Source of the DNA: Clostridia bacterium
GTDB lineage: Bacteria > Bacillota > Clostridia > Oscillospirales > CAG-272
DNA length: 64,000 nucleotides
Assembly (NCBI GenBank): GCA_017504205.1
Contig: JAFVRO010000017.1
Span: 11,743 to 75,742 of the forward strand
Reading direction: 5' to 3'
In this document: piece by piece, positions 3,001 to 48,592 of the stretch
Numbering within the stretch: the stretch's first letter is position 1
How the letters are laid out: each line of letters starts with the position of its first letter
Position numbers and translations under genes: made by a program
Notes under the pieces: model-generated
The model's database searches: none
What the model was told of the DNA's origin: nothing
What the model saw: the letters and a program-made list of their open reading frames with translations, nothing else

Positions 3001-3863
3001 TCGAGAATATCCTTCTTAAGTTCCGCGCCGCAAATACCGAATACGAGCCCTTCTTCAGTGAGGACAGATCCGAACCCTTCTTCATCAAGAGCGTGGAAAA
3101 TATCCAGGGTGACGAAAGAGATACCATTATCTTCAGTACCACCTACGGCCTTGACGAAAACGGCAAGTTCAAAAAGATATTCGGTTCACTTTCCGCCCCG
3201 GGAGGAGAAAGACGACTCAACGTTGCCGTCACTCGCTCCAAGGGTAACTTCAAGGTCGTAACAAGCCTTACTCCCGAAATGTTCGGCTCGTCCGAGTCCC
3301 TGACGAATGAAGGCACGAAGATCCTTTACGAATATATCAAGTACGCCCGTGATATCGCTCCCCGTCCTATGGCAGAGAACTTTACCGAGGTCGGAGATGA
3401 AATAATTTACACACCCGATATCGCTCAGGATACCGATACTCAGGACGTTACCTTCGTTCAGACCGCAGATACCGCTCAGGACGCAAATGCGGAAGCAGAG
3501 CAGACGCCTGAGTTCGTAGCTCCCAAAACTGCAACGGATTCAGTTGTTGGGCTTATAGGCGAATTCCTTGAGTCACAGGGCTATAAGATCAGATACAGCG
3601 TCGGTAACTCACTTAAATATACAGTAGATATCGCTGTCTGCGATCCCGACGACGAAAGTCACTATATCGCAGGAATCGAATGCGACGGATACGTCTACGG
3701 AAGAGCCCGTACTGCCCGCGACAGAGACAGACTCAAGCGTCAGGTGCTCCGCAGAATGGGCTGGAATATGTACCGTATCTGGTCAACCGACTGGATAATC
3801 GATAGCGAGACCGAGAAAAACGAGCTCGTTAAATATCTTTCAGGCCTCAGACAAAGCGTCTGA
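3..3863 (+). CDS. Upf1-like SF1 DNA/RNA helicase (5'-truncated at window edge) with C-terminal DUF559/MTES-type endonuclease-like domain
   Basis: The ORF is open to the window edge. Helicase motifs present: KPCMMMSPQSV, FDMVVFDEASQ (motif II), IIVGDTKQMPPS (III), IQGDERDTIIFS (V), RRLNVAVTRSK (VI). Walker A must lie upstream of the window. After an acidic linker, the C-terminal ~100 aa (YTVDIAVCDP..IECDGYVYG..ARDRDRLKRQVLRRMGWNMYRIWSTDW) looks like the restriction-endonuclease-like module of DUF4011-family helicases. Confidence 0.8.
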   Translation: MEINHLVSIVGNFETSRKALIECQNADCWKDIKIVAISLETRAMLERAFKPAAEALASLSELLASLNEQTNAGLAPGVSELDGFKTLVDAIVKYSDLPKALMSRSNEDLDTLAQSAIVLKDTFEREHRIVDELTAAFNTIDIDFNAWLDRLTELYNAYRTVTTGLPAAETPDAAALAALVSSASENIGICTDLKTLAQDMDKEEADFASLTEIFKTTDPSKPEVLSSKLEYRRLMSSVITLAKDAMRIAKFITVDPADTERCTKAFEALKDFSGDISRFARIKSELSKRWRSEIFSADLKEIYDRFTSRYTELFNPYDEDFRRDARYLRSFAKEYVNIADISSFVTDLQNIFEVAKCERMLRDKGEIYADLFGSIFNGIDTDLEILKLSVNYSYSLNRLFGGNVPERIRNMHQNGLAPSIVARFVNAGNIDIADKTDKLTAMLDKVSFNSTNAAGLSVTDKITGYTDKLSAVCNETVKSYSDSGVLADKDPAQVLACVKDYLGLGGYLTTVYSNIGVDRVNTLIGILGDAYQGDRTDWDSVISSIEKAKALADETCADQCVSILSGADSVSDLVALCTSAKTACDSINATVGAATDMFYNSENLTAMSVQELGARLTACLESFTSLRAIVDYRASKSEMTNAGLAAFANAAERENCVDGIVKAFKVELYKLWLDGQRKHHNVTSIPDRSRHNAINEEFETLDSAQFTVARRRIRKKVLDGIPSVTNPTHEMRLLLEEVNNSKHSYSIRRLLKHTVDVLPLLKPCMMMSPQSVSFYLESAGSDKSYKFDMVVFDEASQVLPEHAISALIRANQAIIVGDTKQMPPSQLFMLGASDTESQNTITIGEGGVVTVESNGQSEQTASSNQPSALDLALQASGKKDEDDGLLSTDNSASILEETKNALDSYSLIWHYRSRYEQLISFSNDRWYHSLVTFPEAVTGERDTGVEYIKVTDGMYRGGSSMRNNPREAVECVKQIIRHMNLYPDRSLGVIAMNVSQAELIENILLKFRAANTEYEPFFSEDRSEPFFIKSVENIQGDERDTIIFSTTYGLDENGKFKKIFGSLSAPGGERRLNVAVTRSKGNFKVVTSLTPEMFGSSESLTNEGTKILYEYIKYARDIAPRPMAENFTEVGDEIIYTPDIAQDTDTQDVTFVQTADTAQDANAEAEQTPEFVAPKTATDSVVGLIGEFLESQGYKIRYSVGNSLKYTVDIAVCDPDDESHYIAGIECDGYVYGRARTARDRDRLKRQVLRRMGWNMYRIWSTDWIIDSETEKNELVKYLSGLRQSV

Positions 3864-3900: not shown

Positions 3901-5757
3901 ATGTTAATTAACGATATAGAAAACGAAATAAACGCTCCGATTGGCACGGAAGATACTGCTGCGTCCGATTGGTCGGACGAGTGGGAGAGCGACGGTAACG
4001 AGGACCGTAGTGTCGGTGAGCAGGAGCCGATATCTGCCTCTGCGGATAATAAGCTTACTCCTACGTCCGCTACCTGGATCAATACTGACTCCGTCGAAAA
4101 TGAGGACGACGGTGCAATAGTCTCCGGAACAGTACTCTGTAACGAGTATCGCGTTCTCAAGCCCATGAACGTAAATACGGGCGAGGCAAGCCTTTATACC
4201 TGTGTTAAGGCAGACGCATCGTCTGATACGAAATACGTCGCAAAGGTGTACCGTCGCTTGCGCTCCGTTAAGCCCGAGGTGACACAAAAATTGCTCTCAA
4301 TGAACTCACCGTATGTAGCACCTCTGTACCTTGTAGGTGAGCACAGAGGCTTCTCGGTCGAGATCATCCCATACTACGCTCAAGGCTCTCTTGCAGGTGC
4401 GACCATCAGCGCGGACGATCTGAAAAGCTTCGTAATTCCCGCACTCAACGAAGGTCTCCACGCCCTTCATACCAACGGTATCATACATAAAGATATCAAG
4501 CCTTCAAATATAATGCTTAACGATACCAATGACGGCGTGGTTCTTATAGACTTCGGTATAAGCTCGGTAAAAGGTCCCGAAAGCACCGTCGTGGTTACAC
4601 AAACGGGTATGACCCCGGAGTATTCCGCCCCCGAGACCTTCAGAAATATCTTCCTTGAAGAGAGCGACTACTACTCTATGGGTATAACCCTCTACGAGCT
4701 TTTCTGCGGAACTACTCCGTTCAAGGCATCGGGCGCATCCCCCTTCTCAAATATGGGCGAGGACGAGATAGCTCAGCTTGCCTTCACGAATAAACTGCCT
4801 TTCCCGCCGGAAATGCCCAAGGATCTGCAAAACCTTATCAGCGGACTAACCTATTTTGATATTTCAAACCGTAAGGATAAATCAAATCCCGATAGAAGAT
4901 GGACTTACGATGATGTAAAGGCGTGGCTTGACGGCTCCTCTCCGCTTCTCCCCGGAGATAGCGGATTTGATCCCGGCGCTATGCCCGCATTCGACTTTGG
5001 CGGTAAACAATACGATACCCTCGAAGGAATAATAAACGCCCTTGCCTCCGACTGGGAGCAGGGCAAGAATACCGTGTTCGGTAAACGCGACCTTCTCAAA
5101 GAGTATTTTGATAAGGTAGCTCCCACAAAATCAAAGATCTGCGAAAACGCGACACAAAGTGTGCGAGGCGGAGCTGACCCCGACGTAGCCTTTTCAAAGC
5201 TTCTCGGAGATCTGTCTCCCTCAAGTCCCGCCCTTTATTGGAAGGGAAACTCATATACCAATGCCAAAAAGCTCGGCGAAAAACTTTTTGATCTGCTCGA
5301 CAATAACGCCGATACGTCCTCTGAGTCGGATCTCATCTCATCAGGCGCGCTTGAAGCGTACTTTGAAAGAGTATACTCAGGCAACAATGAGGCAATAGAC
5401 GCGGTTAAAAGCGCACAGAAGATGCTCACCTCCGCTAAGGATGACTCGGCAAGAAAAGCCGCTCTTTACAGTGTAGCATACCTCACCACGGGTTATATGA
5501 AGGTGAAGATAGCGGATAAGGAGTTCACGAGCGTAGACGAGATCGCCGCCTATATGCGCGCTCTTGCAGATACCTCGTTTGACGCGCTCCGTGAATTTGC
5601 TTACAGTATCGTTGACGTAAGCCTCAACGTCTGCCCGCAGCTCAGAGGCTGGGCGCTCGTTACGGATAAGACCGCAGATATCGAAGCGTGGGAAACCAAA
5701 TTCGGCATGAAGGGAAAAGCTCCCTCCAAAAAATCCCGTACTAAACAAAAGCCATAA
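3901..5757 (+). CDS. Soluble Hanks-type Ser/Thr protein kinase with uncharacterised ~300-aa C-terminal domain
   Basis: Kinase motifs present: YVAKVY (catalytic Lys), HKDIKPSNIML (catalytic loop), DFGIS, TPEYSAPE. The Gly-rich loop is degenerate. No TM segment or PASTA repeats. Starts 37 nt after the helicase stop. Confidence 0.85.
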   Translation: MLINDIENEINAPIGTEDTAASDWSDEWESDGNEDRSVGEQEPISASADNKLTPTSATWINTDSVENEDDGAIVSGTVLCNEYRVLKPMNVNTGEASLYTCVKADASSDTKYVAKVYRRLRSVKPEVTQKLLSMNSPYVAPLYLVGEHRGFSVEIIPYYAQGSLAGATISADDLKSFVIPALNEGLHALHTNGIIHKDIKPSNIMLNDTNDGVVLIDFGISSVKGPESTVVVTQTGMTPEYSAPETFRNIFLEESDYYSMGITLYELFCGTTPFKASGASPFSNMGEDEIAQLAFTNKLPFPPEMPKDLQNLISGLTYFDISNRKDKSNPDRRWTYDDVKAWLDGSSPLLPGDSGFDPGAMPAFDFGGKQYDTLEGIINALASDWEQGKNTVFGKRDLLKEYFDKVAPTKSKICENATQSVRGGADPDVAFSKLLGDLSPSSPALYWKGNSYTNAKKLGEKLFDLLDNNADTSSESDLISSGALEAYFERVYSGNNEAIDAVKSAQKMLTSAKDDSARKAALYSVAYLTTGYMKVKIADKEFTSVDEIAAYMRALADTSFDALREFAYSIVDVSLNVCPQLRGWALVTDKTADIEAWETKFGMKGKAPSKKSRTKQKP

Positions 5758-5768
5758 CCGCAAGAGAG

Positions 5769-6737
5769 GTGACTAAATTGAAAAAATACAAAGTATGCCC
5801 GCTTTGCGAGGAAAAAAACGAGCCCGACGCATTGGTTTGCTCGGTGTGCGAGCTTCCGCTTGACGATGTCGAGCCTATTGAAGAAGGGGAGGAAAATGCT
5901 CCCGATACGCCTGTGAACCCGGAGCCCGAAACAAAATCTTCAACGGAAGAAGCGACCACTCCCGAAGCTCCCGTAACTGAAAGCGAACCTGAGATAAAGC
6001 CCCTTCACGTTATAAGTGATGACGATCTCGATGCTCTTCTTGATTCAAGCTGGGATGCCACTGAGTCAGAGCCCGAATCCAAGCCTGAGCCCGAATCCAA
6101 GCCTGAGCCCGAATTCAAGCCTGAGCCCGAATCCAAGCCTGAGCCCGAACCGGCACCGAAACCCGACCCCAAACCCAAGAGCGCACCGAGGAAAAAGCCC
6201 CAAAAGGAAATTGAAGATTCCGGAGTTTCCTTCGCAGACAAAAAGCGCTCAACGGGTAACGCTTCATACGTTATAAACTGCGATTGCGGTCACGCGAATC
6301 CTTTCGGAAGCATTCAATGCGAGGTTTGCGGCGAATACATCGGTAATCTGAGACCGCAGATGGTACGCTCTGATGGAGATAGCACCGCTACCGATACCGC
6401 AGTATTCCTTGTCGAGGCTGAGGAGATCACCGCATACGTCGAAATGATGGATATCCCGGGGAAGGACGTTATCGTCATCGGAAGACAGACCAACTTCAAA
6501 AAATATCTCGAAAATAAAACCTACGTCAGCCGTAAGCACCTCCGCTTATTCATTAAAGAAGGAAAGCTTTACGCAGAGGATCTTGGCTCAACCAACGGTA
6601 CGTTTATCGACGGTGCGCGCTTAAGACCTAAAACAACGGTTCTTCTGAAGGACGGAGCAAGATTCGTACTCGGGGGCCTTGGATCAGGCGATGGCGCAAG
6701 ATGCGTTGCCGCATTTACCGTGCGCCGTGTAAACTGA
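5769..6737 (+). CDS. Double zinc-ribbon / PEPESK-repeat / FHA-domain protein
   Basis: Contains CPLCEEKNEPDALVCSVCELP and CDCGH..CEVCGEY zinc ribbons. The C-terminal FHA signature is VIGRQ..YVSRKHLRL..DLGSTNGTFIDG. Starts 12 nt after the kinase stop. An alternative TTG start at 5778 has better spacing from the GAGAGG RBS. Confidence 0.85.
   Translation: MTKLKKYKVCPLCEEKNEPDALVCSVCELPLDDVEPIEEGEENAPDTPVNPEPETKSSTEEATTPEAPVTESEPEIKPLHVISDDDLDALLDSSWDATESEPESKPEPESKPEPEFKPEPESKPEPEPAPKPDPKPKSAPRKKPQKEIEDSGVSFADKKRSTGNASYVINCDCGHANPFGSIQCEVCGEYIGNLRPQMVRSDGDSTATDTAVFLVEAEEITAYVEMMDIPGKDVIVIGRQTNFKKYLENKTYVSRKHLRLFIKEGKLYAEDLGSTNGTFIDGARLRPKTTVLLKDGARFVLGGLGSGDGARCVAAFTVRRVN
6069..6150 (+). repeat. 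In-frame 18-bp tandem repeat (gagcccgaatccaagcct, about 4 copies) encoding PEPESK units
   Basis: Direct reading gives units at 6069, 6087, 6105 (one substitution, gaattc) and 6123, degenerating after 6141. Confidence 0.9.
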
Positions 6738-6838
6738 CCGCGTGACATCTTAAATTATAAGTTTGGAATATTTTCATCAATAAAGGTAATATTGGCATAA
6801 GTTAAAAAAAAATAAAACAAATTTGTGCATTTTGCATA

Positions 6839-6867
6839 TTGCATAATTTGATATAATATGCTATAAT
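6839..6867 (+). promoter_or_regulatory. Putative sigma-A promoter of the LytTR regulator gene
   Basis: TTGCAT - 17 nt - TATAAT. It is preceded by reiterated TGCAT motifs (gtgcattttgcatattgcat). Confidence 0.5.
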
Positions 6868-6909
6868 ACGCACGAACAGAACGAAAAACGAAAAACGGAG
6901 AGATTTAGT

Positions 6910-7617
6910 ATGTTCAAGGTAGCCATTTGCGATGATAGCCGAGCAGGCATTTCGGATCTGGTCATGTGGATCCGGGAGCTTGCAGACGAAATATCGTTGG
7001 AGGCGACCGTTGAGGTCTTCAGAAGTTATAAGACATTATTGAAAGCTATGTCCGAACAGGAATATAAGCTTTTGATATTGGAAACTTCAATGGGAGACAG
7101 TAGTGGAATAGAATTTGCCCGTAGACTCAGACGTGGCGGGTTCCGTGCGGAGATAATTTTCTACACAAAGGATCCGGAAGCCGCGCTTGAGGCTTATAGT
7201 GCCTATCCCTCTGCTTATGTACTAAAGCCCGCCTCAAAGAAGAAATTCAGAGAGCCGTTTCGCTATGTAACAGAGAAATATCGCAAAAAGCCATCCGTCG
7301 TATTAAAAACGCGGGAGGGTGAGCGTGTTTCAGTAAGCGTCGAAAACATTTGTTATGTAGAGGTGTTTCGTACTGAGCTCGATGTGCATTGTGTCGACGG
7401 AGTTGAGGTATACGTCGGATCACTTTCCGAGGTGCTTCGTCAGCTTCCGCAAGCGCAATTCTATCGTTCACACCGAAGCTTCATCGTAAATCTTGAGTTC
7501 GTTTCCCGAATAGGAAAGTACTTCTTTACAATGTTGAACGGTGATAAGGTCGCCATCGCAAAGAATCGATACGCCGAGGCAAAGGCGAAATTCGAGGACT
7601 TTGTGGGTAGTGTTTGA
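6910..7617 (+). CDS. LytTR-family response regulator (REC + LytTR), orphan, with atypical receiver
   Basis: N-terminal REC features: ICDDS acidic pair, IIFYT, YVLKP. The C-terminal LytTR region is ICYVEV..FYRSHRSFIVNL. The phospho-acceptor position reads LLILE(58)TSMGD, with codon GAA at 7081-7083. RBS is GGAGAG. Confidence 0.85.
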   Translation: MFKVAICDDSRAGISDLVMWIRELADEISLEATVEVFRSYKTLLKAMSEQEYKLLILETSMGDSSGIEFARRLRRGGFRAEIIFYTKDPEAALEAYSAYPSAYVLKPASKKKFREPFRYVTEKYRKKPSVVLKTREGERVSVSVENICYVEVFRTELDVHCVDGVEVYVGSLSEVLRQLPQAQFYRSHRSFIVNLEFVSRIGKYFFTMLNGDKVAIAKNRYAEAKAKFEDFVGSV

Positions 7618-7917
7618 AAGGAGGGCTAAACCGACAGACAATATCCTGTCGCAAAACAAAAGCTTAATAGCAAAGTGGCGCGGCAAGAACGGTGCCTTAA
7701 AAGTCTGAACGGGCTTAATGTACCGGAAGGTTCTGCGCACGGTGAAAAACCGAAAATTGCACTTAGTGTGCAGATCGCAACTCAACAGACGCAAAATCGC
7801 AAAAAAAGCGACAAGTTGTCCCATTCGTATCAAATATGACCCGTTCATACTAAAGTATGGAAAAACAAAAGGAAATAGTGTACAATAGTACCACAAAACT
7901 AATTTAGGAGGCTAATT

Positions 7918-9597
7918 ATGCTTAAATCCAATAACAAATTTACAAGCGCAATAAAGAGCATTGCTATCGTTCTCGCATTGGTTGCAGTGCTTGTAATGAG
8001 TCTTGCAGGTTGTACAGACGAAGAAGCTCGCCAGATGGCAACAGACGCCGCTAATAAGGCAAACGCAGCTGTTACTCAGGCACAGCTCAATGATGCTGTA
8101 TCCGCAGCTCTTGCAGATTACGCTAAGAAGACCGACGTAATGACCCAGGACGGCGTTGCTACCGTAGTTACTGATGCTCTCAAAGACTACGCTAAGACCG
8201 CTGACGTTCTCACAATGGCTCAGGTAGAGACCGCTATCAAAACCGCTCTCGCTGACCGCTACACCAAGACTGAAGTTGACGCTCTCATCTCCGGCCTTAA
8301 GACAGAGCTCCAGAAGCTTGTTAACGATCAGGCTACCGAACTCAAAAACTATGCTGATGGCAAGATTGACATCGCTACATGGAACGAGCTTACCGGTACA
8401 TACCAGGATCTTGATAACACCAAGACTGTTGTTGGTGCTTGCAAGGCAGTAGACTATTTGCTCGCTACTGTTGAGGCTAACAAAGCAAGCTACACCAAGG
8501 CTAACTATGATCTCGCAGTTTCTCTTTGCGAGGCTGCAAAGGTTCGCTACATCAGAGCTACCACCCTTGGCGATCTCAATGTTGATGAACTCGAGAATGA
8601 AATTGATGAAATTCCCACCATCTACTCTGAGGCACTCGCAGTTGCTGCTCTCATGGCAGAAATCCCCGTTCCTATGACCACTGCTGATGCTCACCAGGAA
8701 GCTCTTAAGAAGGCAGAGGATGCTTTCGCTAAGTGGCTCAATGATTACCCCACCGCTACTGAGGACATTTTCAAGTCCAAGGTTTCCGGCGAGAAATATG
8801 ATGGCGAGGAGCTCCTCGGCAGAACCGAATATGCAAGAACCAAGCTTGACACTATCCTTGTTCCTGCATACACTGCACTCAACAACGAAATTGAAAAGTA
8901 CATCACTGATGGTAAGGGTATTGCTCTTCCCACAACCCCCGATGCAGCTGCTATTCTTGATTCCGTAGTTGCTAAGGTTGTTATCGGCGATGAGCTTGCT
9001 CTCGGAAACATTTTCAAACTCTACAATGACTTCGTAGGTGTTGTTCACGTAGGTCTCAACAGCTACACTGAAGATACTTTCAACGATAACAACGGTTCCG
9101 CAGACAACAGAATTCCTTATTGGTCTGTAGTTGAGGCTTGCTTCGAAGCTCTCAATGTTGCAAGATTCAACGAGTTGAAGACTCTTCTTATCGCTGATAT
9201 CAACGGTGAGATGAAGGAAATCGTAAAAACTCTTAAGGACAGAGCAGATAACATGGAGAATGACATTCTTCGTAACGCTATCGCTACCCTTGAGCACGAT
9301 ATGGTATCTTGCATCAACGATCTTGTATATGACGCTAATAAGTACACCGGTGCTGATTACCAGAAGAGATTTGAGGTTGCAGCTGCACATGTAGCTAATA
9401 TCTCCGCTGCTATTACCGACACTGAAGCAACCGGTACTACCGAAGCTACCGTTGGTGTTCTCCAGACACTCGTTAATGACTATGATGCACTTATTACTGC
9501 TGGCAAGACCTATGCCGAGGCTAACGCAACCCTTGAGGCTGCTATCGAGGCTGCTATGACTAAGGTTGAGAGTGCTGTTGCATATCCTGCAAACTAA
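7918..9597 (+). CDS. Ala-rich all-helical lipoprotein of unknown function
   Basis: Strong RBS (TAGGAGG). Signal peptide with lipobox SLAGC. Repeated DYAK(K/T)xDV / YTKTEVDAL motifs. Codon choice looks biased, and a strong terminator follows. Confidence 0.75.
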   Translation: MLKSNNKFTSAIKSIAIVLALVAVLVMSLAGCTDEEARQMATDAANKANAAVTQAQLNDAVSAALADYAKKTDVMTQDGVATVVTDALKDYAKTADVLTMAQVETAIKTALADRYTKTEVDALISGLKTELQKLVNDQATELKNYADGKIDIATWNELTGTYQDLDNTKTVVGACKAVDYLLATVEANKASYTKANYDLAVSLCEAAKVRYIRATTLGDLNVDELENEIDEIPTIYSEALAVAALMAEIPVPMTTADAHQEALKKAEDAFAKWLNDYPTATEDIFKSKVSGEKYDGEELLGRTEYARTKLDTILVPAYTALNNEIEKYITDGKGIALPTTPDAAAILDSVVAKVVIGDELALGNIFKLYNDFVGVVHVGLNSYTEDTFNDNNGSADNRIPYWSVVEACFEALNVARFNELKTLLIADINGEMKEIVKTLKDRADNMENDILRNAIATLEHDMVSCINDLVYDANKYTGADYQKRFEVAAAHVANISAAITDTEATGTTEATVGVLQTLVNDYDALITAGKTYAEANATLEAAIEAAMTKVESAVAYPAN

Positions 9598-9640
9598 GTT
9601 ATAACAAATAACTGAAGAAGGTAACACCTTCTGAATAATA

Positions 9641-9856: not shown

Positions 9857-11512
9857 ATGAAACGTAAAATTTTAACCGCATTATTTGCAATACTCGCACT
9901 TTGCTCAATGCTGACTGTCTCCATGATCGGTTGCAAAAAGGATTCTGACCGCACCGATAAAAGCCCTCACGAGACCTTCGCAGGCTACGTCGACGACTCA
10001 ACCCCCGACTCCGATACACTGCCCGAATATAGTGAACCGTCGGACAGTACCTTAGACGATGAGCCGCAGGATTCGGCTGAGCCCTCCGTACCTACCGATA
10101 CCTCGGAGCCAACCGACCCGATTCAGCCCCCCACAAGTGAGCCTGTTGAGTCGGAAACCAACGATTCCTCGGTGGATACACCGGAGCCACCTTCAGATAC
10201 TGAGACCCCCTCGTCCGACCGCAATGACGTTGAAAACATCCTCCATGCCTCCGAGCAGATATCAACCCTTTTTGAGTCGATAATCGAAGGCGCTTTCCCT
10301 GAGGTAGATATGATCCGCGAGCTTCTCAGCGTCCACGAAGGACAGCTCGCAATTGACCTCAATAAATTCAATATACTCGGTGCTGACCTTCTTGGTGGAA
10401 AAACCTTAAACCTTTCCGGTGTTACCAAGCACGACGGAACCGAGTACCTTATAGACGGAACCTTGTCCTCGATGCAAAACTCCCCTCGCGTGCTTCTCAT
10501 ACTTGACCGAGACGGAAATCTTTTGCTCCACTTCCCGGATGTCGATAAAAATACTTACGTCAACGTGCTACCGGAAAGCAACCTCGGCAATTTTGTGACA
10601 CTAATTAAGGCTTACCTTGCTGTCTTTGGAAGCAATACTCCCGCATCTCCAACCGAGTCCCCCTTTGATACCTTCCCGTACGATATTATCCCATACCTTA
10701 TAGGCGGACTTGGTGATTATATCAGTGATAAGGGCATTGAAAATGAAACCGTAGTTATTGAACGCTTCGGAAATACCCTTAAGGGCGTTTCCAAACTTAC
10801 CGTTTCCGCCGGTTCGGAAGGCTCATTGGTATATTACGTTAAAGATTCCGCAGTCTACGGTATGGAGATCAATTCCTCGTATCTGTCACTTGAAATAAGT
10901 ATTCTTCCTGCTGAAAATACGTTGTATTCCGTCACACTGAGTGCGACAGTTGGTGATTCCGAGCCCACAACCTATACAGTATCGGGCAGACATTTCACTG
11001 ACGGTACTACATTACGTGGAATGATTCAGCTTGATGCCGGAGATCTGATCTCATCAGTACTCCAAACAATCGCGAAGGATGCAGAGGTCGCGCTTGCTTT
11101 CTCATACAATAACACCGTTGCGGAAAACGGAAGCGCTGCGCTTGAATATAACATCGGATTTCTCATAGATCCGGACGGTATGGCGTTTGAGATAACGGTC
11201 CCACTGACTGTTACCAAAACCGAAACAGAGAAGGGAACCTCTCTTACCGTTACCTCAAAGGCAGACCTTATGGGTATGATAAGCATTGACCTCAGTATCC
11301 GCCTGGACGTCGAAAAGCGTTCAAAGCTTGAGGTGTATATCGAAGTTCCCACGGCAGCACAGACCGTTCTCAACGTACAGAACCCAGATGATACTGCAGC
11401 CATAAGCGCACTTATTGACTCTGTCAAAGTCTCGTATCCGGAACTTGCCGATCTCATAGCTTCATTTAAAAGCATTGATCAGATGATCCCCCCTCTGCCA
11501 AAACAAAAATAA
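9857..11512 (+). CDS. Lipoprotein with acidic Pro/Thr/Ser-rich linker, unknown function
   Basis: Signal peptide with lipobox-like SMIGC. Low-complexity segment EPSVPTDTSEPTDPIQPPTSEP. No recognisable catalytic motif. Confidence 0.7.
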   Translation: MKRKILTALFAILALCSMLTVSMIGCKKDSDRTDKSPHETFAGYVDDSTPDSDTLPEYSEPSDSTLDDEPQDSAEPSVPTDTSEPTDPIQPPTSEPVESETNDSSVDTPEPPSDTETPSSDRNDVENILHASEQISTLFESIIEGAFPEVDMIRELLSVHEGQLAIDLNKFNILGADLLGGKTLNLSGVTKHDGTEYLIDGTLSSMQNSPRVLLILDRDGNLLLHFPDVDKNTYVNVLPESNLGNFVTLIKAYLAVFGSNTPASPTESPFDTFPYDIIPYLIGGLGDYISDKGIENETVVIERFGNTLKGVSKLTVSAGSEGSLVYYVKDSAVYGMEINSSYLSLEISILPAENTLYSVTLSATVGDSEPTTYTVSGRHFTDGTTLRGMIQLDAGDLISSVLQTIAKDAEVALAFSYNNTVAENGSAALEYNIGFLIDPDGMAFEITVPLTVTKTETEKGTSLTVTSKADLMGMISIDLSIRLDVEKRSKLEVYIEVPTAAQTVLNVQNPDDTAAISALIDSVKVSYPELADLIASFKSIDQMIPPLPKQK

Positions 11513-11551: not shown

Positions 11552-11585
11552 GCCGTCCGCATAAATTAAATGTGGACGGCATTTT
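11552..11585 (+). terminator. Rho-independent terminator
   Basis: gccgtccgca-taaattaaa-tgtggacggc forms a 10-bp stem with one G-U pair, followed by attttc. Confidence 0.7.
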
Positions 11586-11602
11586 CAAAAGGGAGGGATA
11601 GT

Positions 11603-12136
11603 GTGAGCGAAATTTATCTGACCAAAATCCGGAAAAACTCGTTCAGGATAGGTATGGGATCAACGCTTGACGTAACAGTCACCCGAGCGATGATTGAAAA
11701 ATACCCGATTCTTGACGCCCTGTGCTCGGAAGTAATAAACAACTGTGAAGAATACGCCTTGAAAGCACTTGCTCCGGTTTTGAAAGCAGAAAACGCAGGT
11801 AAACCGAGCAGATATGAATATTCGGTCAACATATCATGCACCGGGCATGATGAATATCGCATACTGTTCCTGACCTTACAAGTCATACTTAAGCGCGCAG
11901 GGACGCCAATCAAGAGCACTACCTTCTCCTGCGCCGCCGATAGTGAGACGGGATACCTTATCTCAGATAAATACTTCTTCTCTCACTTTGTAAAGCTTTC
12001 TGAAGATCTCAAAAAGGATCATAAAATACGAAAGCAGCTTATCAGAGGCAAGCTTGCCTGGTTTGCGTCTGACGGTTCCAATATTCGCCTTGAGAACGGT
12101 AGGCTTATTGGCGAGCTTGTAAAGCCCACCGCTTAA
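11603..12136 (+). CDS. Hypothetical protein
   Basis: The GTG start follows a GGGAGGGA RBS. The ATG at 11570 given in the ORF track lies inside the terminator. No motif recognised. Confidence 0.5.
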   Translation: MSEIYLTKIRKNSFRIGMGSTLDVTVTRAMIEKYPILDALCSEVINNCEEYALKALAPVLKAENAGKPSRYEYSVNISCTGHDEYRILFLTLQVILKRAGTPIKSTTFSCAADSETGYLISDKYFFSHFVKLSEDLKKDHKIRKQLIRGKLAWFASDGSNIRLENGRLIGELVKPTA

Positions 12137-12167: not shown

Positions 12168-12196
12168 TTGAATTTCTTTATTCCCCGTGTTATAAT
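12168..12196 (+). promoter_or_regulatory. Near-consensus sigma-A promoter of the V-ATPase-like cassette
   Basis: TTGAAT - 17 nt - TATAAT with an extended TGn (gtgtTATAAT). Confidence 0.6.
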
Positions 12197-12240
12197 AAAA
12201 AGAGTATAATTGATATTTGTAAAAAATCAGGATAAGGACG

Positions 12241-12570
12241 GTGAGCCCTGTGCCTCAGAATGCAATAGTAATCATATTAAATACCGAAAAAAAAGCGGCT
12301 CAGATGATAGCGGATGCCAAAGCTTGCGCCGAGGAACTTGTATCCTCAGCAAATAAAGCAGGGGAGACAAGCCTAAGCGAATTTGAGGCTAAGCGCCGTG
12401 CCGACGGCGAAAGAACGGTTCAGGAGATAAGACAAAGCGCAGCGGAGCTCGAGTCAAGAAGCGAAACGGAGGCTATGTCCCGCGCCGCAGAACTGAAAAG
12501 CGCAGCAGAACCGAGAATGCACCTGGCTATAAAGGAAATAATAAAGGGGATAATGGAATCATGCCGATGA
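12241..12570 (+). CDS. Ala/Glu-rich coiled-coil protein, V/A-ATPase peripheral-stalk (G/H)-like
   Basis: The call rests on size (109 aa), heptad-like AEE/AKA composition and first position in the V-type cassette. It overlaps the next ORF by 10 nt. Confidence 0.4.
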   Translation: MSPVPQNAIVIILNTEKKAAQMIADAKACAEELVSSANKAGETSLSEFEAKRRADGERTVQEIRQSAAELESRSETEAMSRAAELKSAAEPRMHLAIKEIIKGIMESCR

Positions 12571-13586
12571 CGGAAATGCCGGAATTTGCGGAAATGACGG
12601 AAAGCGCAGAGAAGCTCCTTACCGTTGTATGCTATGAAAGAGACCTCGATGCTTTACTTGCGCGTTTGATGTCCCTTGATGGAATCAAGCTTCTGGCTAC
12701 CGAAGAGCCGTCTCTGCCAAATGAAGTTTCCCGTCCGACTCCTGATAAGACCGCACTTGCTGACTATACCGAGCTACTGTCGCTTGCGGACAAGGCTATT
12801 GAATATCTGTTGCCCTACAAAGCAGAGTACCGTCCTACCGCCGGGACGGGGGCTTTCGGCGGCACGTCGAAATTAAACTCTGAGCAGATCAGAAGGGCGG
12901 AAAAGATAATACAAAGCATATTGGAAATCAAACGCCTCCTTGATGGCATAGAATCGGAGGAAAAGAAAGCCGATCGGATAATAGGCATACTCTCCCCCTG
13001 GGCATCATATACCGAAAACGTAAGGATCACAGAAACTGCAAGCACTCGCATATTTTACGGAACGATTCCCACCGCGTGCGATATTGGCACACTGTCACCC
13101 GGGAATGATCTCACAGATATCCTTGTAATAAATGATGACGGACATCAAAAATATATCCGCGCGGTATGTCACATCTCGTGCGCAGACAGTGTTCGCTCAT
13201 CTCTTGATTCGCAAGGATTTGTTCCCGAATCCTTCAGTAACATAAACACCTCACTGAAATCTACACTTATAAACGCGCGGAAAAAGCTTATGCAGCTTGA
13301 AGCCGACAGAATCAGAAGTGATATGATGCTTGCGGATTACTCGGAACATATGTCAGAGCTTGAGGAGTACAGAGCCTTTATTGCCGAAAGGATCGCGGTT
13401 GAGCTGGCAAAATCGGAATTTGTATATTTTGATAAATATGTCTGCTTTAAATGCCGACTCCCCGAAGACTCGGCACTGTCAGCACAGACCTATCTGCGCC
13501 ATAAACTGTGTGCCTTCGAGCTTGCCGATATTCCCGATGCTATTACCGCACCGTCAAGGCGCAGAGCAAAAAGGCAGAAGGGATGA
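12561..13586 (+). CDS. V/A-ATPase subunit I-like protein, cytoplasmic N-terminal domain only (no membrane domain)
   Basis: The N-terminus KLLTVVCYERDLDALLARLMSLDGIKLL resembles the start of subunit I. The protein ends at 341 aa with the basic tail SRRRAKRQKG. No hydrophobic helices are present. Confidence 0.55.
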   Translation: MPMTEMPEFAEMTESAEKLLTVVCYERDLDALLARLMSLDGIKLLATEEPSLPNEVSRPTPDKTALADYTELLSLADKAIEYLLPYKAEYRPTAGTGAFGGTSKLNSEQIRRAEKIIQSILEIKRLLDGIESEEKKADRIIGILSPWASYTENVRITETASTRIFYGTIPTACDIGTLSPGNDLTDILVINDDGHQKYIRAVCHISCADSVRSSLDSQGFVPESFSNINTSLKSTLINARKKLMQLEADRIRSDMMLADYSEHMSELEEYRAFIAERIAVELAKSEFVYFDKYVCFKCRLPEDSALSAQTYLRHKLCAFELADIPDAITAPSRRRAKRQKG

Positions 13587-13617
13587 TCACGATAAATAAA
13601 ACTGTTAGGAGAGCCAT

Positions 13618-14274
13618 ATGACGGGCATTGAAAAAATAACGGAAAAAATCATTGCCGACGCAACCGCCGAAGCAAAAAAAATAATTGACGGTGCCGAAAG
13701 GGAAGTACTTGAAATCAAAGCTAAATACTCAGCCAAGGCAGATCTTGTGTCTCGTGCCATAAAGGAAGAAACCGAAAGAACTTGCAGCGAAATAATCGAG
13801 TGCGCAAAGGCTCAGGCAACGGTTACAAGACGCGATACTGTTCTTCGCGCAGAAGCGGATGTTATAGACGATGCCTTCGATCGCGCCCTTGCGGAGATAC
13901 TCTCATTTTCAAAGGAAAAGTACGGCACAATGCTTGCGATAATGCTTTCAAAGCTTGTGCGCGAATGCCTTGAATCCTCAAAACGTTACAAGGATGCGGC
14001 AGAACAGCCCATAGAGATCATTCTTAATTCCCGTGACCGCGAGATTTACGGACAAGCACTGCTCGAAGAGCTGCGCCGCCTTGACACAGTAAAGATCAGC
14101 GCCGCCGATTTTGACCGTATAACCGTTTCGAAAATTACCGCTGATATAAAGGGCGGGGTGATATTGAAATGTGGTAATATTGAATATAACTCATCTCTGG
14201 AACTCTTATTCCGGGAACTTCGCCCCGAACTTGAGGAGAACGTTTATTCCATACTGTTTGGAGAGCGGAACTGA
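13618..14274 (+). CDS. V/A-type ATPase subunit E
   Basis: IEKITEKIIADATAEAKKIIDGAEREVLEIKAKY N-terminal coil; the C-terminal IKGGVILKCGNIEYNSSLELLF...ILFG is typical of subunit E. Confidence 0.8.
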   Translation: MTGIEKITEKIIADATAEAKKIIDGAEREVLEIKAKYSAKADLVSRAIKEETERTCSEIIECAKAQATVTRRDTVLRAEADVIDDAFDRALAEILSFSKEKYGTMLAIMLSKLVRECLESSKRYKDAAEQPIEIILNSRDREIYGQALLEELRRLDTVKISAADFDRITVSKITADIKGGVILKCGNIEYNSSLELLFRELRPELEENVYSILFGERN

Positions 14275-14307
14275 GTACCCGAAAAAGTATAAACGAAAGG
14301 ACAAAAA

Positions 14308-14826
14308 ATGGTAGAGGGAAGAATATCGTCACTTTCAGACGGAATAGCTTTGATAGAGAATATGCGTGGTGTCGCACTCCATAGCACCGTTCGTGTCGGC
14401 AAATCTCGGATACCGGGCACTGTTATAGCTATCAATGGCGATACCGCCAAGGCACTTCTTTTTGATAATTGGCAGGACTTACTCATAGGTGACAGAGCCG
14501 TAAGCGACAATATTCCGTTGTCAGTGGAGCTCGGCCCGGGACTTATAGGTCATACCTTCGACGCTCTGCTTCGTCCGATCGGTAGCAGAGATAAAAACGA
14601 AGGCGCACTGAATAAACGTAAGCGTTGGGTGTTCGTCCCAAAAAGGGATTTCGGAGACAGAGTATGCTCAGGTGACATCGTCGGATATGTCCGCGAGACT
14701 CTTTCCGTAAGACATGCCATAACCGTTCCCCAAGGACTCTGCGGAACGGTAGTTGAACTGAATTCCGGTAGTTTCTGCGTGAACGATCGAATAGGGAAAA
14801 TAAAAAAAGCTGATCTGGAACAATAG
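14308..14826 (+). CDS. V/A-type ATPase subunit A-like, N-terminal fragment (beta-barrel plus V-specific bulge)
   Basis: LSVELGPGLIGHTFDALLRPI and the following bulge region (W.F.P...GD.V..GDIVGYV.E....H.I.VP) are A-subunit hallmarks. The ORF stops at TAG 14824-14826 just before the nucleotide-binding domain. Confidence 0.75.
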   Translation: MVEGRISSLSDGIALIENMRGVALHSTVRVGKSRIPGTVIAINGDTAKALLFDNWQDLLIGDRAVSDNIPLSVELGPGLIGHTFDALLRPIGSRDKNEGALNKRKRWVFVPKRDFGDRVCSGDIVGYVRETLSVRHAITVPQGLCGTVVELNSGSFCVNDRIGKIKKADLEQ

Positions 14827-14879
14827 TAGATATATCTCTGCTTCAGCTCCATGATCTGAGCGCACGCCGTTCCTCGGGA

Positions 14880-15821
14880 ATGCTTGCTCCGTCTAAAAAC
14901 GTTTTTTGCGGACTTCTTGCCACAGACGTCTTTTTTCCAATAGAAAAGGGCGGTGTTGCACTTATTGTCGGAGATACGGCTTCTTCAGCCTCAGATATGC
15001 TTACGCGCCTGACTCTTGAGTCAGATTCAGACGTAAATGTAGTCGTCCTGTGCGGCAAAAGCCTTAATGTGATCTATTCGCGGCTTCGGGAATATAAAAC
15101 TCATATGGCGCGCCAAAAGACCGTGTTTATCCTTAGCCCTCAAAGTGATAGATTTGAGATGCGAAAAAAATCACTTGAAAGCGCCTTTGCCGTCGCAGAA
15201 TATTTCAGAGAAACGGGGCTTAACGTGCTGCTCTCAATAGACACCATTAATGCAATTCTGGAGCTTGCACCTAAAAACGCAACACTGTCTTGCCTGACAG
15301 ACCTTTTAAAGCGCGCCGCAAGAACAGAAAGTGCGGCAAAAAACGCGTCCTATGCATCCCTTACCGTAGTAACAACCGCTTCTCAAAGTCTTGTCGCAGC
15401 CCTGGAGCAAATAAAGTCGTCTGTTGGCACATATATAGAACTTGAATGCGAGAATTGCTACCCCACGAACGGCTCAATTAACTTTGATGGTTCATTCTCG
15501 AAAAGCAATTGCAGAAATGCATCAGCCGACGGGATAGTACATGCGTTGATAAACATCTCGGACGGCAAAGACAGTGAGAGCGCATATCTTGCGCGCCTTG
15601 CTCTTAAAGCTATCCTGAATGCGGATTTTTTATCCGCACACGCCAAAGACGTATTTGATGCTCAAACACTTGTCTCCTCAGAACGCGCCTTCCTTGACAG
15701 TGTTCTGCGCCTTTGCCGCGAGGCAGAGCGCTCTCCCACCAAATGCCGTCAGGTGCTTACCGACATACTATCCCTTTGCGAAAATATAACGCCGGAAATA
15801 ACGGAAGGAACAATAACGTGA
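14880..15821 (+). CDS. V/A-type ATPase subunit A-like, nucleotide-binding and C-terminal part, with degenerate active site
   Basis: LLATDVFFPIEKGGVALIVGDTASSAS aligns by eye with L.TGQRV.D..FP..KGG....GPFGSGKT, so Walker A is lost. CGKSLNV replaces CGERGNE. The frame is open from 14814, upstream of the ATG. Confidence 0.7.
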   Translation: MLAPSKNVFCGLLATDVFFPIEKGGVALIVGDTASSASDMLTRLTLESDSDVNVVVLCGKSLNVIYSRLREYKTHMARQKTVFILSPQSDRFEMRKKSLESAFAVAEYFRETGLNVLLSIDTINAILELAPKNATLSCLTDLLKRAARTESAAKNASYASLTVVTTASQSLVAALEQIKSSVGTYIELECENCYPTNGSINFDGSFSKSNCRNASADGIVHALINISDGKDSESAYLARLALKAILNADFLSAHAKDVFDAQTLVSSERAFLDSVLRLCREAERSPTKCRQVLTDILSLCENITPEITEGTIT

Positions 15822-17068
15822 TTAAATACAGAGAATACAGAACCGCCGTATCATTAACCGAATATTTGCTTACCGTGAGCGATGTAGACTCCGCCCGAAT
15901 CGGTGAGCTCTGCGAGGTAATCTCCAATAATAGCGCAGAGCCACAGTATGCTACGGTGATAGCCCTTGACGGACGAGCCGCTATGCTGCGCCTGCACGGA
16001 AGCGCAAAGTCACTCTCACTTGAAAATGTTTGCGTAAGGTTTACCGGCAGAACACCCACACTTGCGGTGTCGCAAAGTATGCTCGGAAGATGCTTCAACG
16101 GATTCGGCGAGGTTGCTGATAACGGACCAAGAATTATATGCGGAAAAAAAGCCGAGGTATATACACCTCCCATCAGCCCTGCGGAAAAGAGCTGTCCCAC
16201 CGAGATGCTTTCAACGGGATTATCCGCCATAGACGTGATATCCCCCATTCTTAAAGGACAGAAAATGGCTATTTTCAGTGGGCACGGTATTCTGTACGAA
16301 AATCTGCTTGTCAGAATATCTAAATCCCACGGCAATTCCACCTCTGCTCCAATAATTATTTTTGCAGGCATCGGACTGAATGACAGAACTGTGGAAATGA
16401 TAGATCACGCGGTAGTACAAATGGGTATCCTTGACCGAACCGTTCGCATTGTAAGCCGTGCCAATGAACCGCTTCCGGAGCTTCTTGCAACTCCACATAC
16501 CGCAATGACCGTGGCAGAGTATTTTGCTTTGGAGCATGGTGCCGACGTCATCGTGCTGATGACCGATATGGCAAGTTATGCCGAGGTGCATCGCACGGTA
16601 GCCATCGACGCGGGAGAGGCAATGGCATCTAATGGATATCCCGTAACTCTTTCCCCCGACCTTGCCGCAATAGCGGAAAGAGCAGGAGTATACAGAAAAA
16701 ATAACGGCTCAGTGACATTGATAGCCGCGATGACCGCAGACACATCGACCCCGGTAGCCGAGATATTGCGCCGCGTGACGGATAGTAGAATTACACTGTC
16801 ATCGGAGCTTTATAAGCACGGAGTAAACCCGCCGATCGACCCGCTACATTCCTTCTCCGCGCTCAGAAAGAATGCCAAAAACGCCCCCGTTGATACCGTA
16901 ACTGCGGAAAAGCTGCTTGCACGTTACGCCGAAGCCGTTTCGGGAACGGACTCGCAATTCGGTTTTGCAAAGACAGTACTCGATAAGCTTGTCTCCCAGG
17001 ATATGCGTTCCTTCAGACAACCTGAACAGATAGCGGGTATAGTTGAAGCACTGATGTCAATGGAATAA
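15818..17068 (+). CDS. V/A-type ATPase subunit B-like
   Basis: The GTG start overlaps the A stop (GTGA) and follows a GGAAGGA RBS. Motifs: KYREYRT, STGLSAIDVISPILKGQKMAIFSG, GSVTLIAAMT, NPPIDPLHSFSAL. Confidence 0.8.
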   Translation: MIKYREYRTAVSLTEYLLTVSDVDSARIGELCEVISNNSAEPQYATVIALDGRAAMLRLHGSAKSLSLENVCVRFTGRTPTLAVSQSMLGRCFNGFGEVADNGPRIICGKKAEVYTPPISPAEKSCPTEMLSTGLSAIDVISPILKGQKMAIFSGHGILYENLLVRISKSHGNSTSAPIIIFAGIGLNDRTVEMIDHAVVQMGILDRTVRIVSRANEPLPELLATPHTAMTVAEYFALEHGADVIVLMTDMASYAEVHRTVAIDAGEAMASNGYPVTLSPDLAAIAERAGVYRKNNGSVTLIAAMTADTSTPVAEILRRVTDSRITLSSELYKHGVNPPIDPLHSFSALRKNAKNAPVDTVTAEKLLARYAEAVSGTDSQFGFAKTVLDKLVSQDMRSFRQPEQIAGIVEALMSME

Positions 17069-17077
17069 CAGTAAAAC

Positions 17078-17112
17078 GGGCCGTCTCACACAAGTGTGAC
17101 AGCCCTTTCATT
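17078..17112. terminator. Imperfect hairpin between convergent genes, variant of the gggctgtctca...gacagccc family
   Basis: gggccgtctcacac-aa-gtgtgacagccc followed by tttc. Confidence 0.55.
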
Positions 17113-20265: not shown

Positions 20266-20910
20266 ATGGAAAAATTAAAGCTCGCCTCTGAAAACAGAGG
20301 ACGTTTTATTGTAATGGAAGGTATAGACGGTTCAGGAAAGACCACTCAGATAAAAATGCTCGCTAAAAAGCTTGCGGAATGCGGAAGAAAGACTTATATC
20401 ACCGCAGAGCCCACACAGTCCGTAACTGGGGGACTGCTCCGCGACGCACTTTGCGGTTATACCAAGAGAACCGCCTGCGAGCTTGCGGCACTGTTCGTCA
20501 TTGATAGAATAAACCATAACGTAAACCCCGCAAACGGGATCAAAAAGCTTCTGCTTGACGGCTTTGATGTTATCTGCGACAGATATTATTATTCCTCCCT
20601 TGCATATCAGGGAAGCGAGACGGATTTCGATTGGGTAAAACGAATGAATATAGACTGTCCCGAAATAATGACTCCCGATATCTGCATTTTCCTTGATGCT
20701 TCCCCCGATCTTTGTATAGAACGTATTTCAGGTGAAAGAGCAGTGGTTGAAATATATGAGAAGAAGGCGACTCTTGAAAGATTCCGTGAAAGATATTTTC
20801 AGGTGTTCGATATGCTGAAGGACACGGACAATATCGCAGTGGTAAGCTCCGAGAGCTCAGCCGAGGCAACCGCAGACCGCGTATTCGCGGCAGTCAAAAC
20901 TATTCTTTGA
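20266..20910 (+). CDS. tmk: Thymidylate kinase
   Basis: FIVMEGIDGSGKTTQ P-loop and DRYYYSSLAYQ. The ATG at 20266 has an AGGAG RBS; the ORF-track start at 20224 lacks one. Confidence 0.9.
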   Translation: MEKLKLASENRGRFIVMEGIDGSGKTTQIKMLAKKLAECGRKTYITAEPTQSVTGGLLRDALCGYTKRTACELAALFVIDRINHNVNPANGIKKLLLDGFDVICDRYYYSSLAYQGSETDFDWVKRMNIDCPEIMTPDICIFLDASPDLCIERISGERAVVEIYEKKATLERFRERYFQVFDMLKDTDNIAVVSSESSAEATADRVFAAVKTIL

Positions 20911-29216: not shown

Positions 29217-29247
29217 GTCCCCACCGTGTGCGGTGGGGGCATTTTTT
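29217..29247. terminator. Bidirectional hairpin terminator between convergent genes
   Basis: ccccaccg-tgtg-cggtgggg followed by cattttttt; an A-run precedes it for the opposite strand. Confidence 0.7.
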
Positions 29248-46232: not shown

Positions 46233-46241
46233 AGCTCCTCC

Positions 46242-47582: not shown

Positions 47583-48592
47583 TCCTCATCCTCCCTGAAT
47601 ACTCTGAACTCAGTTTTAAGCGGCTTGAACTCAATAAACGGCGCTATAAGCTTGCAAAATCCGTTGATTATGGGACTGCTGTGGTGAAGCGCCGCCCAAA
47701 GCTCCTCGTAATGACATCCGAGCTTGAGCTTGGTATCGTCTGCGGTCTGACCGAAGTCAATAGTCTTGAAGCCGCCGTCTATGCCGTATCTGATTATCTC
47801 ATAAAGCATCCTGTGATAAACGGGATATTTTTCATTGTACTCCTGATCAACTCCAACAAATTCAAATATCAGTTCACTGCCGTTTTCAAGAAGCTGAACG
47901 AATCCCACAACGTGACCGTCAAGCTCCGCCACGAACATCTTGAACATATCCCCTCTGAAATAATTCGCACTGAGTGTCTCGATTTTTATGCGGGATTTGC
48001 GCTGTATGCTGAGATACATCTCATACATCTCATCGGTAAATTCCGTGCGGTTGTCAATATAGCGTATGGATATGTCTTGGGCTCGCTTGAATACCTTTTT
48101 GGCGTGATTTCTGTAATGACTGCGAAGATGCAAAAGATAATCGTCAAACGATGAAAAGCTCAGATCAAGAATGCACTTGGAGCAGGTAAGTCCCGTAGCA
48201 TATCCCGGTGCATTTTCGTCGTTAAGGTTCAGGATCATTTTGTATCCGCGTATACGCCGTATCTCGTCGAATACCTCGTCACGAAGCTTGCCGAGTATTA
48301 TTCCGCTTGCAGTAACGCTCATCGGAAGATAAATAAGAGTAACGCTTATCCTGAAGCTTATCGGCGTGAACATAGCTACATTGTAGCCGCGACGCTTATA
48401 TGCTATAAAGCAGGAATCAAGCTTATCCCCATCGTAAAACAGATAGTACGCAGGCGTATAGTCCGCCTCCGTCCTCTCAATAAACTCAAGAAATTTTCTG
48501 TTAAGATATATGTTCCCGTTTTGTGCTGCAAGTCCGTCCCATTCGGAAGGAAGCTCGCAGGCACGTTCAAGTTTAACCTTTTTTGTTGCCAT
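47579..48592 (-). CDS. GNAT-fold (FemAB/CelD/BioF2-like acyltransferase family) protein
   Basis: The C-terminal HVVGFVQLLENGSELIFEFVGVDQEY..YHRMLYEIIRYGIDGGFKTIDFGQTADDTKLKLG resembles Acetyltransf_6-type domains. 4-nt overlap with the downstream radical SAM gene. Confidence 0.45.
   Translation of the reverse strand: MATKKVKLERACELPSEWDGLAAQNGNIYLNRKFLEFIERTEADYTPAYYLFYDGDKLDSCFIAYKRRGYNVAMFTPISFRISVTLIYLPMSVTASGIILGKLRDEVFDEIRRIRGYKMILNLNDENAPGYATGLTCSKCILDLSFSSFDDYLLHLRSHYRNHAKKVFKRAQDISIRYIDNRTEFTDEMYEMYLSIQRKSRIKIETLSANYFRGDMFKMFVAELDGHVVGFVQLLENGSELIFEFVGVDQEYNEKYPVYHRMLYEIIRYGIDGGFKTIDFGQTADDTKLKLGCHYEELWAALHHSSPIINGFCKLIAPFIEFKPLKTEFRVFREDEE

Follow-up and report, generated by a model that had tools for sequence, protein, structure and literature searches.

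A 64,000-nucleotide stretch of a metagenome-assembled genome (MAG) from a Clostridia bacterium (GTDB lineage Oscillospirales, CAG-272; assembly GCA_017504205.1, contig JAFVRO010000017.1, positions 11,743 to 75,742 of the forward strand; this whole stretch is called the window below) contains at positions 12168-17068 a cassette of five genes, which probably is an expressed remnant of a V/A-type ATPase operon, inherited vertically and today coding for the stator only. Judged from the genes described below, this stator would consist of the A/B head, the peripheral stalk formed by subunits E and G, and the soluble collar domain of subunit I (I_N). Such a complex would be unable to hydrolyse ATP, to rotate or to pump ions, and it may be kept for a structural or regulatory role that is independent of nucleotides.

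The cassette forms one compact transcription unit on the + strand, in which a sigma-70-type promoter is followed by the tightly packed genes for G, I_N, E, A and B (Table 1), the gaps between these genes being -10, 31, 33 and -4 nt. The promoter matches the consensus at 10 of 12 positions and carries a TG before the -10 hexamer; the same hexamers, separated by a different spacer sequence, are found upstream of G in related loci of other assemblies (loci are designated here by L and a number), namely in L001, L005/L006 and the more distant L007. Overlapping start and stop codons as well as Shine-Dalgarno sites are further signals of expression. The proteolipid K/c, the membrane half of I, C/d, D and F are all missing from the locus, which holds for the window, for five more assemblies and for four other species, and since no gap between the genes exceeds 33 nt, a K, C, D or F gene hidden inside the cassette can be ruled out. 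In the NCBI annotation (locus tags IKA82_02140-02165) E alone has been named (V-type ATP synthase subunit E), and the remaining cassette genes are listed as 'hypothetical protein', so that metabolic reconstructions could miscount loci of this kind for or against the presence of a V-type ATPase. All NCBIfam scores of the cassette proteins lie far under the curated cut-offs, which marks them as very divergent members of their families. The PADLOC defence models gave no match for G, I_N, E, A or B, nor for p188, the protein encoded directly upstream of G.

Subunit A can be recognised by the V/A-specific bulge (PF16886 ATP-synt_ab_Xtn, 6e-16) and by the half of the nucleotide-binding domain that is present (PF00006, 1e-16), and its closest relatives are canonical V-type A subunits of Clostridia. 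In an alignment to one of these (P0016), the Walker A motif GPFGSGKT is replaced by GDTASSAS in the window and by GDTSACAS in L001, the segment with the catalytic Glu, GCGERGNE, reads LCGKSLNV in the window, a stretch of about 16 residues (SRWAEALRE...EEMPGEEGYP in canonical A) is missing after Walker B, and the C-terminal domain is shortened and hardly alignable; the Walker B Asp is still present. Both motifs, Walker A and the catalytic Glu, are kept in all canonical A proteins among the best matches (117 of 117), and the degenerate motifs are themselves conserved between the window and L001. Subunit B clearly is of the V-type (NCBIfam V-type subunit B, 5e-80, under the cut-off; Enterococcus hirae NtpB, 3vr2_D, 4e-65). 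Its P-loop is the usual non-catalytic substitute (SGHGILY), and Ala replaces the Arg finger (R350 of E. hirae B), SLSRL aligning with SFSAL. In F/V-ATPases, the loss of the P-loop Gly-Lys-Thr, of the catalytic Glu or of the Arg finger each alone abolishes or drastically slows hydrolysis. The GTG start of B is preceded by a ribosome-binding site (GGAAGGAA); B starts at this GTG (15818) and not at 15713, and the 416-aa product is identical to NCBI MBR2370804.1. Secondary NCBIfam matches of the cassette were to FliI/SctN and SctL/FliH, and weak ones to MMOB1660/1670 and MSC_0618/0619.

Among the stalk and collar subunits, E passes the curated cut-off of its Pfam family (Table 1). G stays under that of Pfam V-ATPase_G (2e-5), and a profile built from nine cassette G proteins matches subunit G of yeast (4dl0_K, 5e-10) and of Thermus thermophilus (9e-6). 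For I_N, neither Pfam nor NCBIfam gave a match, a sequence-only search of PDB chains gave nothing relevant, and five I_N proteins used as a profile in a word-indexed search yielded just three matches, which were uninformative. An exhaustive I_N profile search recovered 106 relatives; those of 637-680 aa are V_ATPase_I proteins, which I_N matches over the first ~320 residues only (E 1e-10 to 1e-13). An AlphaFold2 model computed with a three-sequence alignment was useless (predicted local distance difference test, pLDDT, 51), and an alignment of 58 sequences was used instead (pLDDT 89, predicted template modelling score 0.82). With this model, the best Foldseek match is subunit I of T. thermophilus (6r0z_N, 2e-10; template modelling score 0.57-0.60), followed by 3rrk (8e-10), the crystal structure of the cytoplasmic domain of subunit I (I_NT). 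No hydrophobic or transmembrane segment is predicted over the 341 aa of I_N; canonical I homologues have five to nine predicted transmembrane segments, which start at about residue 345. I_N stops at a conserved Pro, from which canonical I goes on with 'PVLLxNN...FE...MYS' and the first membrane helix, and its basic tail (SRRRAKRQKG) is conserved in character in L001 and L005.

A preliminary description of the stretch, made from its letters and its open reading frames (ORFs) alone, had proposed this composition: a near-consensus promoter before tightly packed ORFs, a 109-aa coiled coil looking like G/H, the N-terminus of subunit I ending before the membrane helices, a well-conserved E, an A with the V-specific bulge and without Walker A and catalytic Glu, a B subunit, and the absence of K/c, membrane I, C/d, D and F. 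The profile searches, the model and the alignments bear out each of these assignments, and six assemblies together with four other species agree on the missing genes. An intact P-loop that had merely been mis-registered is not found in the alignment, nor are K, C, D or F contiguous with the cassette in any of the five other assemblies of the locus.

Table 1. Position of the cassette components and of adjoining features in the window
Feature	Coordinates	Strand	Description
p188, protein directly upstream of G throughout the syntenic clade	11570..12136	+	homologues in L001 (42% identity) and L006 (30%)
sigma-70-type promoter	12168..12196	+	TTGAAT-17-TATAAT, extended -10 (TGTTATAAT)
subunit G-like coiled coil	12241..12570	+	109 aa, GTG start; NCBI version 106 aa
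I_N, soluble N-terminal (collar) domain of subunit I/a	12561..13586	+	341 aa, basic tail, no membrane domain
subunit E	13618..14274	+	218 aa; PF01991 vATP-synt_E 1e-11, over cut-off
degenerate A subunit	14308..15821	+	503 aa when intact; here split 14308-14826 + 14880-15821 (172 + 313 aa)
B subunit	15818..17068	+	416 aa, GTG start overlapping A stop as GTGA
hairpin between convergent B and Mbeg1-like genes	17078..17105		dG -15.8 kcal/mol, z -4.4 vs shuffles

Six assemblies of the taxon of the window share the contiguous gene content of the cassette (with the ORFs likewise intact in L013), and the arrangement G-I_N-E-A-B, with all ORFs open and in the same synteny, occurs in four further species (L001, L005, L018 and L019). 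The I_N proteins of L001/L002 and L005/L006 are 56% and 34% identical to that of the window, and the intact A proteins of these loci measure 503 and 483 aa, respectively; a Mbeg1-like protein, a histidine kinase, a response regulator and Tmk are the neighbours common to them and the window. L018 and L019, both labelled 'uncultured Lachnospiraceae bacterium', were found by searching GTDB species representatives with the syntenic histidine kinase, a profile search of genome contigs with the I_N alignment having given no confirmed locus; both are arranged as lipoprotein, p209, G, I_N, E, A, B, Mbeg1 and HisKA. The ratios of nonsynonymous to synonymous substitution rates (dN/dS), calculated by the Nei-Gojobori method for two independent pairs, are given in Table 2 and are approximate, since dS (0.6-2.5) is saturated in several of the comparisons. 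All five cassette genes are under purifying selection, E showing the lowest value of the cassette genes in the L018/L019 pair. Between the window and L001, eight flanking genes have recognisable Pfam domains, and the ratios are 0.01-0.10 for seven of them and 0.13 for the LytTR regulator; the two lipoproteins encoded upstream reach 0.12 and 0.35, and p188 0.18.

Table 2. dN/dS of the cassette genes in two independent species pairs
Gene	Window vs L001	L018 vs L019
G	0.17	0.12
I_N	0.13	0.16
E	0.14	0.085
A	0.14 (N part), 0.24 (C part)	0.23
B	0.12	0.25

Similar reduced cassettes are present in at least six more metagenomic lineages, which were reached via other short, helix-free I_N proteins of the profile search (L007, L008, L010, L011, L012 and L098; Table 3). 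Across all cassettes a gradient becomes apparent, leading from catalytically intact forms over those having lost the Glu only and those having lost the P-loop to the absence of A and B, with lengths ranging from 571 to 423 aa for A and from 459 to 337 aa for B. The catalytic Glu is lost in eight of the nine cassette A proteins; that every reduced cassette has lost it is falsified by L098. In a neighbour-joining tree, which may suffer from long-branch attraction and includes a narrow canonical sample, the nine cassette A proteins stand apart from 24 canonical ones (86% bootstrap), the five syntenic species group together (100%), and L098, where the Glu is kept, pairs with L008, where it is lost (100%). 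The most economical reading of these data would be that the rotor and membrane genes were lost first, and only once, that the catalytic constraint then relaxed, and that the catalytic Glu disappeared several times independently; afterwards, A and B would in some lineages have been deprived of their C-terminal domains or have vanished altogether.

Table 3. Gene content and catalytic motifs of the reduced cassettes (numbers after A and B are lengths in aa)
Locus	Content	Walker A of A	Catalytic Glu of A	Arg finger of B
L098	G-I_N-E-A550-B441	intact	kept	kept
L010	I_N-E-A541-B459-D...	intact	Thr	kept
L008	G-I_N-E-A571-B410	intact	Ala	kept
L011	G-I_N-E-A423-B	intact	Met	not seen (contig ends)
L019	G-I_N-E-A-B	intact	Leu	B C-terminus deleted
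L018	G-I_N-E-A-B	Lys -> Arg	Ser	B C-terminus deleted
L005	G-I_N-E-A-B	Lys -> Arg	Tyr	Glu
Window, L001	G-I_N-E-A-B	lost	Lys	Ala
L007	G-I_N-E... (contig ends)			
L012	p187-G-I_N-E only, then unrelated genes			

Several of these loci deserve a remark of their own. In L010, an ORF after B (4123-4236) starts with MAELHVTATRTELKKLQVRYQTARRGHKLLKDKRDGLT, which we take to resemble the N-terminus of the rotor subunit D, and the contig ends there; it looks as if this reduced cassette (without K, C and F, with a truncated I and with A Glu -> Thr) would still keep D. The cassette of L012 (5081-7884 of GCA_964638045.1) comprises only G, I_N and an E-like protein of 228 aa without a Pfam match, lacks A and B, adjoins a PemK toxin gene and lies downstream of dlt-like genes (PP-binding, MBOAT). 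L008 contains at 5630-5923 a gene for a zinc-ribbon-like protein of 97 aa with four cysteine pairs of the CxxC type, which in L008/L009 overlaps the end of B by 14 nt and could be an extra, lineage-specific component. P0176 of L099, considered as a member consisting of I_N only, was rejected, since a canonical subunit I has been split there into two ORFs.

The core of the remaining complex would most likely be the sub-complex of E-G and I_N, with the dead A/B ring serving as an accessory platform, because E and G are kept in every lineage examined, L012 manages without A and B, the dN/dS of E is the lowest in L018/L019, and the frameshift alleles described below strike A and B. Speculatively, the basic tail of I_N, placed where the former membrane anchor began, may hold the assembly at an anionic surface such as a membrane. 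Whether the observation can be extended to a small bacterial family of stator-only V-type pseudoenzyme cassettes (G, I_N and E, with or without A and B), which would have lost the rotor and the membrane sector first and catalysis repeatedly, and which selection would have kept across species for a novel, rotation-independent function of the E-G stalk and the collar, appears to us evenly balanced. The finding is rare and limited so far to uncultured gut Clostridia, and full-text literature searches yielded no description of stator-only V-type cassettes, just as the preliminary description had known of no system with this composition.

The preliminary description had also stressed that the ORFs of the cassette stay open with a single frame break, which we place between 14814 and 14823 in A. 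The first part of this statement holds, and the second does not describe the system: the 90% identity cluster of the A fragments includes an intact 503-aa member (P0229) on nine other contigs, and five assemblies of the same taxon from different samples (L013-L017) all encode an intact A, their identity to the window being 99.92-99.96% over as much as 7.5 kb. They differ from the window at 14810-14816 (GCTGATCTGG in the window vs GATGA--CGG), and in three of them this is the sole difference. The lesion in A is an assembly error or a private mutation. Neither the fused A, used to scan metagenomes, nor a degenerate DNA pattern spanning the frameshift site gave a match. In two of the six assemblies of the taxon (L014 and L017), a 1-nt deletion at 16043 truncates B to a 329-aa call.

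Some of the data weigh against a cassette retained for a function of its own. The only variants in 7.5 kb within the taxon of the window are frameshifts in A and B, which implies that the cassette genes are dispensable at least under some conditions. Between the window and L001, the cassette genes evolve 2-10 times faster than the flanking housekeeping genes. The intact catalytic site of L098 implies that some members may still be ATPases whose partners are encoded elsewhere, and the reservations expressed above on the tree and on the substitution ratios have to be added. The frameshift alleles and the faster evolution than in the neighbours, taken together with the stepwise erosion of catalytic residues, the shortening of A and B across lineages and the absence of both in L012, would also suit an operon in slow decay, whose non-functional leftovers are seen before stop codons accumulate. 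We consider this improbable, and for the lineage as a whole largely refuted: five species have all five ORFs open in spite of a dS above 1, dN/dS amounts to 0.085-0.25 in two independent pairs, and the promoter, the ribosome-binding sites and the start/stop overlaps are conserved. Simple decay is rejected for the lineage on account of the open ORFs and the low ratios, as neutral sequence at a dS of 0.6-2.5 would be full of stops. The preference of the preliminary description for a retained, repurposed and non-catalytic assembly thus fits better with the syntenic open ORFs of four species and with their dN/dS; the reduced cassette is conserved in relatives with ratios below 1, as it had proposed to look for, and in the four further species no orthologue riddled with stops was encountered. 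That the missing K, C, D and F genes reflect a deletion by misassembly has a practically negligible probability. The window does belong to a MAG with one assembly-private lesion in A, but six independent assemblies and four other species present the same contiguous order with gaps of at most 33 nt, for which reason an assembly deletion is rejected for the lineage.

Partners encoded elsewhere are the basis of a further explanation, according to which the cassette serves as an accessory or regulatory module. As a spare or decoy stator it would bind rotor or membrane parts, or E-G, and in this way modulate the assembly or activity of a canonical V/A-ATPase present elsewhere in the genome. This is possible, if rather unlikely. 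The surfaces for binding partners are retained in the N-terminal regions of A and B, in E-G and in I_N, the cassette A is closest to canonical Clostridia V-type A subunits, L010 seems still to have D after B, and the complete catalytic site of L098 without local rotor genes invites partners in trans. Ten canonical V-type A matches at NCBI, checked by their accession blocks, all come from MAGs other than that of the window. However, erosion and deletion have gone furthest in the C-terminal domains of A and B, where the rotor is contacted, and we know of no spare or decoy stator regulating a V/A-ATPase in bacteria. Far less likely still is a complex that remains an ATPase by means of non-canonical catalytic residues or of another nucleotide site, for example in B. 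A retains the Walker B Asp, Walker A is intact and the Glu absent in L010, L008, L011 and L019, and L098 has both, but the A subunits of the clade of the window are devoid of the P-loop Gly-Lys-Thr and of the catalytic Glu, and B offers a non-catalytic P-loop substitute and no Arg finger. A stator kept without catalysis stays our preferred reading.

Set beside the V/A-ATPases of E. hirae (NtpFIKECGABD) and T. thermophilus, the cassette has homologous G, N-terminal domain of I, E, A (with the bulge) and B in the same relative order; unlike these operons, its locus is without K/c, the membrane half of I, C/d, D and F, and it has lost the Walker A Lys/Thr and the catalytic Glu of A as well as the Arg finger of B. 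The A bulge and the peripheral stalk of E and G are thus the V/A-type features that are present, and Walker A, catalytic Glu, Arg finger, the membrane domain of I and, at the locus, K/c, D, F and C/d are those that failed. As far as sequences can tell, the cassette clearly derives from a V/A-type ATPase operon, yet most of the features that define this family are missing from it. Among natural systems, the closest precedent is the naturally reduced A/V-type enzyme of Nanoarchaeum equitans (A3B3 core PDB 5bn3-5bn5), and NEQ263/PDB 5bn3 is among the matches to the B subunit of the window. In this enzyme the rotor subunit D is kept together with the membrane subunits a and c, and E and G are missing. 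The cassette follows the opposite pattern, the stator being kept and the rotor and membrane parts lost. The A3B3 core of the reduced N. equitans A-type ATP synthase is thought to be non-functional (Mohanty et al. 2015, as cited in PMC6349945). Another gene cluster derived from a rotary ATPase is found in the Mycoplasma F1-like X0 ATPases (Type 2 in the gliding motor, Type 3 linked to MIB-MIP), which were repurposed for a non-bioenergetic function and need an intact Walker A lysine (bioRxiv 10.64898/2025.12.04.692339); X0 is F-type derived and membrane associated, whereas the cassette is V-type derived and has lost this lysine. The export ATPase complex FliI-FliH-FliJ (SctN-SctL-SctO) resembles the cassette in combining a soluble relative of the F/V head with a stalk-like protein (FliH resembles b/delta/E) in the absence of a proteolipid rotor. 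FliI, however, is a catalytically active homo-hexamer with FliJ as central stalk, in contrast to the distinct A and B, the bulge and the I_N collar of the cassette. An identity as FliI/SctN-type export ATPase was rejected, the best matches being V-type A and B and the head having two distinct subunits; no secretion genes were found in the window. Free eukaryotic V1 is a soluble A3B3 head with E-G stalks, which is catalytically silent. The cassette resembles this form as it exists after reversible disassembly (compare PMC8804929), but free V1 keeps D, F, C, H and an intact site, is silenced reversibly and leaves subunit a in the membrane.

Rotary ATPases are textbook machines, the parts of which make sense only together. 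If the reading as a stator retained over long evolutionary spans is true, the stator would have a selectable function of its own without a rotor, a membrane sector or an active site. The natural intermediates (intact, Glu lost, P-loop lost, A/B lost) could then be used to study how a multi-subunit enzyme turns into a pseudoenzyme, and the cassettes would be a present-day counterpart to the modular origin from F/V-type parts that has been proposed for the FliH-FliI complex of flagella and type III secretion systems.

Regarding the surroundings of the cassette, no consistent functional partner emerges, as the neighbours differ outside the syntenic clade, with the possible exception of p188. This protein has no Pfam, NCBIfam or PDB match, shows a weak, collinear match to p209 of L018 (hhalign E 0.019) and no similarity to the equally placed 187-aa protein of L012; its membership in the cassette system is unproven. 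Downstream, the hairpin following B coincides with a minus-strand terminator-like site and likely acts as a bidirectional terminator. Upstream of p188, two predicted lipoproteins of ~555 aa are encoded (7918-9597 and 9857-11512, +; lipoboxes LAGC and IGC), both without a Pfam match. The first of them has a homologue (E 5e-34) at the same position in L018, which makes the block of lipoprotein, p188 and cassette syntenic across distant carriers; a 571-aa antisense ORF mirroring it (7912-9627) probably is a composition artefact.

Further away, a large helicase (3-3863, +; AAA_11/AAA_12 and a MTES_1575 restriction-endonuclease-like domain), whose ORF runs off the start of the window, gives a match of 5e-191 to PDC-S37, a candidate anti-phage system; the helicase is also syntenic in L001 and is unrelated to the cassette. 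It is followed at 3901-7617 (+) by genes for a Ser/Thr protein kinase (618 aa), an FHA protein with an N-terminal zinc ribbon and a LytTR response regulator, a block conserved in L001 with 79-90% identity. On the other side of the cassette, the thymidylate kinase (20266-20910, +) is under unusually strong constraint, its protein being 98% identical to that of L001 (17682-18326; dN/dS 0.013, dS 0.9), where neighbouring genes are 78-95% identical. A CHAP-SH3-Flg_new (Listeria-Bacteroides repeat) protein encoded at 29246-30784 (-) is a likely secreted cell-wall hydrolase. Two B12-binding radical SAM enzymes are encoded side by side at 44913-48592 (-), with a GNAT-like acetyltransferase and an unannotated protein of 357 aa after them; together they may form a small modification or biosynthetic cluster.

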